64,000 bases of DNA. Origin: Octopus vulgaris. Taxonomy: Eukaryota. The notes beneath the pieces were generated by a model that saw only the letters and a list, made by a program, of their open reading frames with translations, did not search any database and had not been told where the DNA came from. The stretch is taken from contig OX597826.1 in assembly GCA_951406725.2 (NCBI GenBank), positions 75,268,001 through 75,332,000 on the forward strand, read 5' to 3'. Every line of letters begins with the position of its first letter. Within the stretch, counting starts at the first letter, position 1. Shown here piece after piece: positions 19,432 through 63,635 of the stretch. Made by a program: the position numbers and the translations under genes.

Positions 19432-19708
19432 AACGAAAACAATTGCAGCGTGGAAGGTGTTTGTAAGCCATTTAAGAAACACACAAAAACCGTTCGATTC
19501 ACTTCAACATTTAAATTTAATTTGTCAAAATATTTTCGTCTCTTTGAGATCGCGACCTGTTCACTGACAAAACTTCGTGCAGCATAATTGAATCTAACGG
19601 TTTTGTGTGTTTCTTAAATGGCTTATAAACACCTTCCACGCTGCAATTGTTTTCGTTCCAGCACACGATCTTAGATCAGGTCACTTGCTATGAAGTACAT
19701 CTCCGTAA
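19432..19708 (-). mobile_element. Penelope-like inverted pseudo-LTR remnant
   Basis: ~70-bp inverted arms (19432-19501 / 19588-19657) around a hammerhead-like motif; flanking direct repeat tttacaacgaa. Confidence 0.6.
19521..19571 (-). ncRNA. Minimal type-I hammerhead-ribozyme-like motif, G3-C8 variant
   Basis: uuuguca GUGAACA g gucgc-loop-gagac GAAA AUAU UU ugacaaa; 7-bp stem I. Confidence 0.6.
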
Positions 19709-19823
19709 TTTACAACGAAGTTTATGACAAATAGTTTTCAGATAGTATAGATTACAGTTATCTTTTCTTGTTTCAGTCATTGGACTGCGGCCATGTTGGG
19801 GCACTACCTCGAAGGGTCTAGTT

Positions 19824-61600: not shown

Positions 61601-63635
61601 CAACAGGATTAAAAAACATTGAGTGAATGAAACATAAATTCCTTTTGGAAGGAAGTGGCAGGAGTGGCTGTGTGGTAAGTAGCTTGCTTACCAACCACAT
61701 GGTTCCGGGTTCAGTCCCACTGCGTGGCATCTTGGGCAAGTGTCTTCTGCTATAGCCCCGGGCTGACCAGTGCCTTGTGTGTGGATTTGGTAGACGGAAA
61801 CTGAAAGAAGCCCGTCGTATATATGTATATATATATGTATGTGTGTGTATGTTTGTGTGTCTGTGTTTGTCCCCCTAGCATTGCTTGACAACCGATGCTG
61901 GTGTGTTTACGTCCCTGTCACTTAGCGGTTCGGCAAAAGAGACCGATAGAATAAGTACTGGGCTTACAAAGAATAAGTTCCGGGGTCGAGTTGCTCAACT
62001 AAAGGTGGTGCTCCAGCATGGCCGCAGTCAAATGACTGAAACAAGTAAAAGAGTAAAAGAGTAAAAGAGAGTAAAGAGTTTGAATATCATCCCCAGTTTA
62101 CCGTTTATAACACTTGATAATTTCGAAATGTAGTTCCAATGAGGCACGCATAAATATACTTTGCATAAACTAAATTAATTAAAGATAATGACCCGTCGCT
62201 TGTAGGGTTCCTGGCAATTCAGTATAATATCCAGTTCCCCATTTCAAGTGGAATTCCAACCGCGTTTCGTGGTTCGCTACCTCAACAGCTCCTTTATAGG
62301 ATCTAGTGGCTAAAAACGTCATCAGAAGGAACCACGTCAGGTTTCGGCCCCTACTTCTCTACCGTTTTCGACGTGGTGCCCCTCCCCCACTTTCGGAGGT
62401 GTCTTCAGCTCTGGTGTTGAGTGCGTTATTTTCTTTCTCCTTTTTCTTCGGTCTTTTGTCCTTTGGTTTCTTCGAAGCAGCGTCAACAAATGGCTGCAAG
62501 GAAATGACCATCCTGCCAAATTTCCCTTTAAATACTCGCTAGTAGGCTCCTCCAGGAGCTGGCACCAGCTAAATGTCACGTGACACTATCTAAGCTTCAA
62601 TTGACCAATGGAGGGAAAGGACGCGTAGTGTTAGTTTCAGTTCCAGCAGCCAGAACTGACTAACTGTCTGGTGGTACAAGCCTTCGAACCATTGATCAAG
62701 AGGGTGCACAATGAACGAGATCGCTCCCTTGGCCCACCTGTCAAGCAGCAGCAATGCTGCTTAAATGCCAGCCAGCCTCGCCTAACGACGCTATTTCCCA
62801 GTCGGCATGTTATGGCCATTTTGGGTCTTCTCGTTTCAGGCATATATGGAAGCTGGCTTTTTCGACTGCCTCTTGTATCCTCCTTATTACTTTTTCAGCT
62901 CTGAGTTCGAAAATGCAAACCTTCTTTTAAATAACATCACCATTTTCCTTTCAAGAAAGCCTCTAGCCGCCATTACGACAGTCCACCCCTGTTCCCCTTA
63001 CTCTCCAATTAATCTCTCATACCTCTTCTCCTTCCGTTGCTCTGCATCAGGTTACTACAACTTAGTCTAGCTGGACGTCGAATATTATTTCAGAGCAATG
63101 AATATTGTAGCTGTGATTGAAGGAACAGAAAGATGTCACAGATTTATGCTGTGTTAATGACTTCAAAAATAACTATTTAAATAGAAGCATTTTTATATGT
63201 AGTCCTAATAAAAGTTGGTGTGATGGTTGCACGGTTTTTGATATGTGAGAAATACCTTTGTACAGGCCATATCTGTGAATATTCAAGCAGTATTTTTTTG
63301 GTGAGAAAATATTCCTATTTGTCAGTACTATGGAGTAAATAAACATAATCAATAATAAGTGACAGACAAATGCTACTAGAAATACGTGGACATTAACCAC
63401 AATTATTCTTCTTCTTTACAGAGGAAACGGGTTAGGGATTGCTTCAACGTTTGCCCGCATTGGTAGCATTTTTGCACCTTTTATCCTTCAACTGTCATCT
63501 TACGTGAAATGGCTTCCTCTAAGTATCTATGGCCTTTTGTCAGTGATAGCTGGATTATTGCTGTTACTTCTACCAGAAACAAAGGATAGAGATCTACCTC
63601 AAACATTTGAAGATTTGAAAGCATGGAAAAAATGA
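46637..63635 (+). CDS. SLC22: SLC22-family (MFS) organic cation/zwitterion transporter, 9 coding exons, 545 aa (gene span)
   Basis: Manual splicing gives 1638 nt with GT-AG introns and consistent phases. Motifs: [44 protein letters not shown]; four loop cysteines. Confidence 0.93.
46770..47264 (+). mobile_element. Family-A SINE with expanded internal (TA)n
   Basis: Head and tail intact; ~100-bp (TA)n inside. Confidence 0.88.
47471..47783 (+). mobile_element. Family-B SINE, 5'-truncated
   Basis: Matches 14541-14852 reverse complement. Confidence 0.88.
47965..48000 (-). ncRNA. Minimal hammerhead-like motif (C3-G8; A6U, A14G)
   Basis: cuuu CUGUCGA a gagc-uuag-gcuc GAGAC GUC aaag. Confidence 0.5.
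48110..48477 (+). CDS. SLC22 coding exon 2 (TM1 + extracellular loop)
   Basis: tttcAG|...GCGPFQRR...[15 protein letters not shown]. Confidence 0.9.
48688..48863. repeat. (TCTA)n-(TCTG)n-(CCTG)n compound microsatellite
   Basis: Directly visible. Confidence 0.95.
49475..49581 (-). ncRNA. Hammerhead-like motif with long stem II (cleavage triplet GUG)
   Basis: aucac CUGAAGA a [~80-nt hairpin incl. uauacagg/ccuguaua] GAAACA-ca-UGU G gugau. Confidence 0.45.
50344..50718 (+). mobile_element. Family-B SINE, full length
   Basis: A and B boxes and body match the other copies. Confidence 0.88.
50884..50987 (+). CDS. SLC22 coding exon 3
   Basis: [34 protein letters not shown]; 104 nt; AG/GT flanks. 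Confidence 0.95.
51180..51502 (-). mobile_element. Family-C SINE dimer
   Basis: Core present twice; short inverted head at 51161-51178. Confidence 0.8.
51921..52311 (+). mobile_element. Non-autonomous Helitron
   Basis: A|TC 5' end; 3' hairpin cccgagcaacgccggg then CTAG. Confidence 0.8.
52525..52624. other. Assembly gap (100 N)
   Basis: N run; tcataggcgta occurs on both sides. Confidence 0.99.
52754..53221. repeat. Minisatellite, 4 x ~116 bp
   Basis: Units start at 52754, 52871, 52987 and 53103. Confidence 0.95.
53880..54034 (+). CDS. SLC22 coding exon 4
   Basis: (R)FGRKLTFF...STYAL; 155 nt; donor GTAAGT. Confidence 0.93.
56581..56749 (+). CDS. SLC22 coding exon 5
   Basis: (N)[10 protein letters not shown]...NWHYLEL...FW; 169 nt; donor GTGAGT. 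Confidence 0.93.
56805..57198 (-). mobile_element. Non-autonomous Helitron
   Basis: Minus strand A|TC...hairpin...CTAG|T; terminal 28 bp identical to the element at 51921-52311. Confidence 0.85.
57791..58048. repeat. Perfect 111-bp inverted repeat with 36-nt spacer (probable Penelope-like inversion)
   Basis: Arms 57791-57901 and 57938-58048. Confidence 0.92.
59155..59406 (+). CDS. SLC22 coding exon 6
   Basis: YIPESPRWL...SFIDLFKT...CFS; 252 nt. Confidence 0.93.
60309..60523 (+). CDS. SLC22 coding exon 7
   Basis: (W)CVISMLYYG...GNRYINF...VEFP...; 215 nt. Confidence 0.93.
60616..61028. mobile_element. Tc1/mariner-type MITE with nested family-C SINE
   Basis: TA-ccgtattttccggcatacaagtcga ... 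tcgacttgtatggcagaaattacgg-TA; the SINE has a 15-bp TSD gccaatttatatacc. Confidence 0.85.
61270..61378 (+). CDS. SLC22 coding exon 8
   Basis: [35 protein letters not shown](R); 109 nt. Confidence 0.95.
61657..62078 (+). mobile_element. Family-A SINE, full length
   Basis: Near identical to 29373-29788. Confidence 0.9.
62245..62830 (-). mobile_element. Penelope-like remnant (pseudo-LTR with hammerhead core, degenerate endonuclease end)
   Basis: Homologous to 34140-34480; upstream frameshifted NGHNMP/W.NSVV resembles the H.PDW.N end of PLE GIY-YIG. Confidence 0.55.
63422..63635 (+). CDS. SLC22 coding exon 9 (terminal)
   Basis: [20 protein letters not shown]...[27 protein letters not shown] at 63748-63753. 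Confidence 0.95.

Follow-up and report, generated by a model that had tools for sequence, protein, structure and literature searches.

Candidate hammerhead ribozymes of two kinds in repeat families of one Octopus vulgaris locus

Introduction

Penelope-like elements (PLEs) are known to carry minimal type-I hammerhead ribozymes, which lie in a pseudo-long terminal repeat (pLTR) behind an open reading frame (ORF) for reverse transcriptase (RT) and a GIY-YIG endonuclease, and which have an extra base after A9, a G10.1-C11.1 pair, a palindromic helix III and, commonly, U17 (Cervera and de la Pena 2014, PMC4209133). Here we describe seven hammerhead-like motifs in one stretch of Octopus vulgaris DNA (64,000 nucleotides of contig OX597826.1, G000:C13:75268001-75332000, called the window below), which are copies of six dispersed repeat families. 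The motifs of F1, F2, F6, F7 and probably F3 are of the PLE kind and resemble the published set in this setting and in these details. The sixth family, F45, occurs twice and belongs to a long interspersed nuclear element (LINE) of the restriction-like endonuclease (RLE) type, a group of non-LTR elements whose clades are enumerated in PMC4640811.

The U3-A8 core pair occurs naturally, as do A6C and, in a viroid, U4C (PMC3088659); in Schistosoma mansoni PLEs, U3-A8 comes together with the extra base after A9 and low activity, and the core UUGAAAA, as in our F2, is already listed for the S. mansoni element Cercyon (PMC4209133). The swapped G3-C8 pair is mentioned as an engineered change (PMC3884650), and engineered C3G/G8C hammerheads, including that of the anole PLE PAc, are partly active (PMC11167929; Martick and Scott 2006 cited there). 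F1 has the same swapped pair, but as the wild type of a young family with long intact ORFs and not as a laboratory mutant. Also unlike the PLE set of PMC4209133, sister families here show three different 3:8 states; cores with G3-C8, A6U or U4C appear in none of the rows of its Fig. S3 alignment available to us, nor do the available parts list a cephalopod. In the anole PLE, cleavage has been found to require protein, and insertion in vitro does not require cleavage (PMC11167929).

F45 resembles the type-SGC hammerhead HRIMA-1 (Eckert et al. 2023, PMC10085705) in the order of its blocks (cleavage site, GAAA, core), in its full core and in a helix that joins the other sides of stems I and II. 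The SGC RNAs of that report come from metatranscriptomes only, whereas the F45-type motif lies in genomic retrotransposon DNA. With the ribozymes of the hepatitis delta virus (HDV) kind at the 5' ends of R2 and L1Tc (PMC6765202), F45 shares a self-cleaving RNA on a LINE, predicted in its case, and it differs from them in ribozyme class and in lying at the opposite end of the element. The 'HHR_half_core' motifs of Naiad PLEs (Craig et al. 2021, PMC8557442) are like F45 in having CUGANGA and a flanking GAAA at an unusual distance that the descriptors do not fit; they include an Octopus entry, and the parts of that paper available to us propose no structure for them. Hammerheads on RLE-type LINEs, or wiring of the F45 kind, have no description in the literature searched (including PMC13725137, PMC10162972, PMC7229834 and PMC6765202), a body of work with most subscription papers outside its coverage.

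Results

Repeat families behind the seven motifs

We consider it probable, judging from the sequences, that six families of retrotransposons, carrying self-cleaving hammerheads of two kinds with cleavage predicted, gave rise to the seven motifs, most of which are decayed copies. The stronger result concerns F45, a conserved hammerhead-like RNA on LINEs whose wiring is apparently undescribed. The original prediction had listed seven motif strings and given them one common type-I layout. Every string is present where it was placed, and the layout stood at the level of family majorities for F1, F2, F3, F6 and F7, but not for the motifs at 34388 and 62248. These two belong to the single family F45, give no type-I fit with the stems proposed for them, and fold in our model through other strands.

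A type-I descriptor that requires a Watson-Crick pair at 3:8 gave three matches in the window (19521, 20604 and an unrelated one at 63097) against a mean of 0.9 per shuffle (30 shuffles, maximum 3), and an Rfam scan of the window gave 113 matches at E<=10 with no hammerhead among them. Since the descriptor count is barely above that of the shuffles, the window alone is weak evidence, and we therefore searched each motif through the whole 2.8-Gb genome and aligned the 30 best loci per family, a non-random sample of closest copies. The family majorities fitted a relaxed type-I descriptor, in which 3 and 8 may form any Watson-Crick pair and the core may depart once from the standard, with 0 (F1), 0 (F2), 1 (F3), 8 (F6) and 1 (F7) shuffles in 1000 scoring as well, so that an excess over shuffled sequence, also expected by the original prediction, is marginal in the window and clear in the families. 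All five fits are on the sense strand, with none antisense, and all five majorities have stems I and II, GAAA, a self-complementary helix III, the A15.1-U16.1 pair and a base other than G at position 17.

PLE families with type-I motifs

F1 is a young family, for which a genome search with a 35-nt pattern returned 1014 exact matches and its reversed control none. Of the 30 best copies of the F1 endonuclease ORF, 29 are followed on their own strand, after about 1 kb, by the G3:C8 motif, and one copy holds a 1025-aa frame with RT and GIY-YIG; the candidate full-length F1 region L215 has no PLE ORF. Changes between F1 subfamilies are concentrated in loop II and the flanks. RNA contigs from four runs, unevenly covered and not counted as evidence, held no common substitution in the motif outside loop II. 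Coding constraint on the motif is unlikely, for the frame that follows an upstream ATG differs between subfamilies and stops early. At L250:5895-5925 and equivalent positions, a stretch rich in microsatellites gives way to a branch-point-like and an acceptor-like sequence, 20 nt upstream of the core, and the motif thus appears to lie just after a putative 3' splice site. The acceptor-like sequence recalls the intron that reportedly lies beside the Penelope hammerhead of D. virilis.

Linkage to PLE ORFs was also found for F2 (one of two regions fetched, L291 and not L290), for F6 (at least 2 of 30 loci, with the ORF upstream and in the same orientation) and for F7, which has one full, decayed PLE element with two repeats of about 630 bp. 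No PLE ORF was found for F3 in 30 loci and one region. Its copies show inverted 5' copies, an optional tail and (TA)n ends, and inverted 5' arms, tails and (TA)n ends are seen alike in copies of F1, F2 and F3, an anatomy that PMC8557442 describes for PLEs. The PLE origin that had been proposed for the motifs therefore holds for F1, F2, F6 and F7 through linked GIY-YIG/RT ORFs and fails for both F45 motifs, while for F3 there is PLE-like anatomy only. A diverged F2-like copy with C17 and an altered stem I flank (L068:1-110) possibly represents a further subfamily.

Covariation of the 3:8 pair among sister PLEs

A further sister PLE family, F8, shares with F1 and F2 a homologous 5-bp stem II and the same extra G. 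The ORFs of F2 and F8 are 42% and 38% identical to that of F1, the endonucleases of the three sisters 37-42% identical to one another, and in the endonuclease tree F1, F2 and F8 are set apart from F6 (94/90), with F7 on a long branch. The 3:8 pair is G-C in 28 of 30 copies of F1, U-A in all 30 of F2 and C-G in 14 of the 20 copies of F8 fetched (of 41 listed), a few of which have G, U or A at position 3; it is also C-G in F3 (24/30), F6 (22/30) and F7 (27/30). At pair 3 of stem II, F2 has U-A where F1 and F8 have C-G; at pair 4, F8 has A-U where F1 and F2 have G-C. The 3:8 covariation between sister families is real: as had been proposed as a check, the pair is near-fixed within F1 and F2 and covaries between sisters. 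Since the pair switched while the stems were repaired by compensatory changes, selection on an active fold seems likely.

Only F7 and F8 have the canonical CUGANGA core; F1 has G3:C8, F2 has U3:A8, F6 carries A6U family-wide (CUGUCGA being its commonest core, 14/30) and F3 often has U4C. A search for CUGANGA would, as predicted, miss the cores of F1 and F2. The cores GUGAACA, UUGAAAA and CUGUCGA that had been listed are family traits, but CUGACGG (20931) is decay of one copy from a family core of CCGACGA or CUGAYGA, and GAGA (47965) and G17 (49475) are likewise specific to single copies. The F3 family has C3:G8, A17 and a stem II of 3 bp, and its position 4 may be either C or U; given CpG decay, C is probably the older of the two. 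U17 as a partner of the swapped cores was dropped, being common in published PLE motifs. As U3:A8 in PLEs is already published (PMC4209133) and G3:C8 is apparently unreported in nature, the swapped pair is a modest variant; the literature searched, with the likeliest paper on natural variants outside its coverage, holds no natural G3-C8 and no octopus case.

The F45 element is an RLE-type LINE

In long copies of F45 a disrupted ORF, with a knuckle and a PD-(D/E)xK-like domain at its end, is followed by about 600 nt of untranslated region (UTR); the element ends just after the motif, and the copy at 62248 retains a remnant of the ORF. The ORF has 1219 homologues at E<=0.001, and an RT domain (RVT_1) was found in 6 of the 7 scanned. 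The host of F45 is thus an RLE-type non-LTR element, putatively HERO-like. For the RLE domain, word-based protein searches, Pfam, PDB and viral contigs gave no match. We rejected F45 as a PLE with a type-I fold, as there is no PLE ORF and the type-I descriptor fails, and we also rejected a type-III reading. A second upstream 'core', CUGAAGA, is the 5' strand of helix X (see below), and other lineages do not conserve it as a core.

A recurrent six-helix fold behind RLE ORFs

When all six block orders were tested on the F45 host majority, SGC was best, with a score of 16 reached by 1 of 3000 shuffles, and it left an odd mismatch at 10.1-11.1. We then scanned metagenome contigs by protein alignment and obtained 20 loci, 32-53% identical and chosen by protein similarity alone. 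Behind these ORFs the order, 5' to 3', is the 5' strand of helix X, hairpin Y, the 10.x strand of stem II, the 5' strand of helix Z, the cleavage block, a short linker, the 11.x strand of stem II, GAAA, stem III, the 3' strand of Z, stem I, CUGANGA and the 3' strand of X. A strict descriptor with six helices matches 10 of the 20 loci (three of them near-identical). Among the ten misses, two have only 127 nt downstream, six look decayed by eye and two show nothing. Controls gave no match in 4000 shuffles, in the antisense strand or on the coding side, and an Rfam scan of seven of the loci found nothing at the motifs. In 895 kb of other DNA there were three matches, one of them to a further high-copy family, F9, and two to another repeat. 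F9 is young and non-coding and belongs to the octopus genome; a first look gave 3429 candidates, and the 40 that were scored reached 91-100%. Its copies lie in partial tandems of about 770 nt, seven of eight hold the six-helix pattern, and no ORF was found in eight regions.

The lineages that could be parsed number ten (eight from metagenomes, F45 and F9). A15.1-U16.1 and G10.1-C11.1 are invariant among them, and position 7 (U in five, A in four, G in one) and position 17 (C or A) vary as hammerheads do. At most positions of helices I, II, III, X and Y, between 2 and 4 types of Watson-Crick pair occur. In all ten the strand after A9 pairs upstream, forming helix X. The motif thus has the S-G-C order, stems I and III, an interaction helix between stems I and II (Z), a short linker and an intact core, as SGC hammerheads do; its linker between the stem I and stem II strands is 1-6 nt, against typically 3 nt in PMC10085705. 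It departs from them in that CUGAnGA is not directly continuous with its stem II strand: the SGC blocks of PMC10085705 assume this continuity, whereas here the strand lies upstream, with helices X and Y between. Were a loop to cap helix X, the F45 motif would count as a ribozyme of the SGC class that has gained two hairpins between A9 and G10.1, which by analogy may be the place where PLE motifs tolerate one extra base.

F45 could instead have a known topology, type III or a plain SGC fold with the 10.1-11.1 mismatch, with X, Y and the upstream stem II strand forming an inhibitory alternative fold. The plain SGC score on the host majority and the competition of rod folds (see below) speak for this, but the lineages other than F45 offer no pairing between the strand that follows A9 and the one that precedes GAAA; the upstream strand pairs with the latter at 49 of 50 positions, begins with G10.1-C11.1 in 10 of 10 and covaries, and we regard a known topology as improbable. 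Chance patterns amplified by repeat copying are a still poorer account of the matches as a whole, one that is largely refuted already and that we give hardly any weight: the counts in the window are close to those of shuffles, fixation in young families reflects descent and not selection, and Rfam gives no support, but the family-level shuffles, the sense-strand position behind ORFs and the recurrence of the pattern in lineages so distant in protein sequence all speak against it.

Another repeat (L123, minus strand, near 2033 from the reversed start, and L157, minus strand, near 355) has the S-G-C order and stems I, II and III with no clear helix Z, possibly a simpler version of the F45-type motif. 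In L301, L303, L300 and L306 a tRNA-like stretch was seen by eye between the RLE ORF and the motif.

Weighing the fold and its activity

Several observations weigh against active hammerheads of the proposed kind. Damaging changes are present in six of the seven window copies. The F45 majority in the host genome fits only with a 3-bp stem II, and just 7 of 31 and 10 of 39 genomic copies fit; the G-rich segment is very variable, and 10 of 23 parsed copies are closer to a longer stem. Minimum-energy folds of all four lineages shown are rods without stems I or II, from a program that cannot form pseudoknots. The descriptor was written after viewing the same loci and selects for pairing, so that pair counts lean to the model, and the lineages are related. 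Among the PLEs, the F8 majority fails in stem I unless G at 2.1 (5 of 20 copies) is assumed to be the state before CpG decay, and G3.G8 occurs in three F1 copies (18 diverged regions examined) and in 2 of 20 F8 copies. The endonuclease tree does not order F1, F2 and F8 and therefore does not give the direction of the 3:8 change. The three G3.G8 copies of F1 (L252, L262 and L264) share one contig and are perhaps a small subfamily that lost the pair.

The motifs might also no longer cleave usefully, their hammerhead-like fold being retained as a signal for protein binding or reverse transcription, which we find unlikely though the most serious of the alternatives. Mutants of the PAc hammerhead still support insertion in vitro, and RNA-seq ends at the site were not seen, as far as PMC11167929 was available to us; minimal PLE hammerheads are weak (PMC4209133); U4C of F3 and A6U of F6 fall where changes lower activity (PMC3088659); and 36 of 39 F45 copies, picked by the sequence downstream of the predicted cut, extend more than 50 nt upstream of it. 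Two of the 39 begin within about 1 base of the cut and one within 10, a weak hint of its use. However, a Watson-Crick 3:8 pair, A15.1-U16.1 and a base other than G at 17 are kept while position 7 varies, and this is a catalytic signature for which a binding site has no evident need.

Taken as a whole, the observation that prompted this study is partly confirmed and its interpretation partly supported.

Features of the window

The features are listed in Table 1. The F1 copy has stem II shortened from 5 to 3 bp, the F2 copy agrees with the family majority, and position 17, A in the F7 family, is G in the F7 copy. Four paralogous C2H2 zinc-finger exons lie on the plus strand (2347-3372, 12766-13866, 21503-22516 and 31276-32538), the copies of F1-F3 being directly upstream of the third. 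Two mutually similar LINE-type RT fragments (38399-39079 and 40208-41236, plus strand) are also present, and 45533-45811 (plus strand) has a weak match (29%) to an RLE-type C-terminal domain, a second, older element.

Table 1. Features of the window and representative copies of families F8 and F9
Feature	Position	Strand	Remarks
F1 PLE 3' fragment (pLTR), inverted 5' arm and tail	19432..19709	-	family linked to RT + GIY-YIG ORF
F1 minimal type-I hammerhead motif	19521..19571	-	core GUGAACA +1 (G3 19564, C8 19559), self-complementary helix III, U17
F2 PLE 3' fragment, short inverted remnant	20584..20736	+	ORF link in locus L291
F2 minimal hammerhead motif	20604..20640	+	core UUGAAAA +1 (U3:A8), 5-bp stem II, 3-bp stem I, U17
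F3 repeat copy	20895..21002	+	decayed hammerhead motif 20931-20969; putative PLE origin, from anatomy only
F45 3' UTR fragment of RLE-type LINE	34139..34472	+	helix X 5' strand 34320-34328; cleavage block 34359-34369, predicted cut after 34363; GAAA block 34371-34383, G12 mutated; core 34398-34404
F6 PLE 3' fragment	47875..48081	-	motif 47965-48000, family core CUGUCGA (A6U); copy also A14G
F7 PLE 3' fragment	49424..49636	-	motif 49475-49581, long stem II, one extra base before GAAA
F45 RLE-LINE 3' end	62250..63048	-	ORF remnant 62816-63048; element end 62250; helix X 62400-62409 with 62309-62318; hairpin Y 62381-62399; cleavage block 62354-62364, predicted cut between 62360 and 62359; GAAA block 62339-62351; core 62319-62325
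F8 hammerhead	L199:1700-1830	-	further copies L270-L289
F9 six-helix pattern	L223:940-1110	+	copies L312-L319

Discussion

Our preferred explanation is that the octopus families carry hammerheads of two kinds, with catalysis presumably by the standard hammerhead core. Those in the pLTRs of the PLEs (F1, F2, F6, F7 and probably F3) would be minimal type-I motifs whose helix III is self-complementary and which are expected to cut slowly, as dimers in tandem pLTR transcripts or with the aid of the element's protein, and among sister PLEs the 3:8 pair would have switched between C-G, U-A and G-C while compensatory changes repaired the stems. The other kind, in the 3' UTR of an RLE-type LINE, would have the four helices and the block order of type SGC, that is cleavage site, short linker, GAAA and core, with a helix joining stems I and II. 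Its 10.x strand of stem II would lie upstream, A9 being connected to it through helix X and hairpin Y and not through the backbone.

The predicted cut of F45 is about 110 nt from the 3' end of the element. Since nearly all copies extend past it, uncleaved RNA would be the usual template, and the cut is likely slow or conditional, as most genomic copies span the site. It may process read-through or tandem transcripts, or limit the supply of template, rather than define the primer end. Competing rod folds could hold the ribozyme off most of the time, and the 3' product may sometimes be copied, as the few copies that start near the cut weakly hint.

A bolder form of this explanation, to which we would give an even chance, is that an active hammerhead of undescribed architecture is present in an RLE-LINE lineage and in one or more non-coding repeat families of the octopus genome, next to a young PLE family with a natural G3:C8 pair. 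The architecture would be non-circularly permuted and contain several pseudoknots, and two helices would bridge a gap in the backbone between A9 and G10.1.

If this is true, no earlier case would exist of a non-circular hammerhead in a cellular genome or of any hammerhead at the 3' end of a LINE, and F45 would have been hidden from all current descriptors. It would give a host element and a genomic setting to non-circular hammerheads, hitherto known only from anonymous RNA contigs. The rules for the best-studied small ribozyme would become wider, since a block that was taken to be unbreakable would have a natural break and the G3:C8 pair would occur in nature. With the F45 fold, the 'half-core' motifs of Naiad elements, so far unexplained, could be read in a way that can be tested, and three sister PLEs with three states of the 3:8 pair are natural variants with which the function of PLE hammerheads can be tested.

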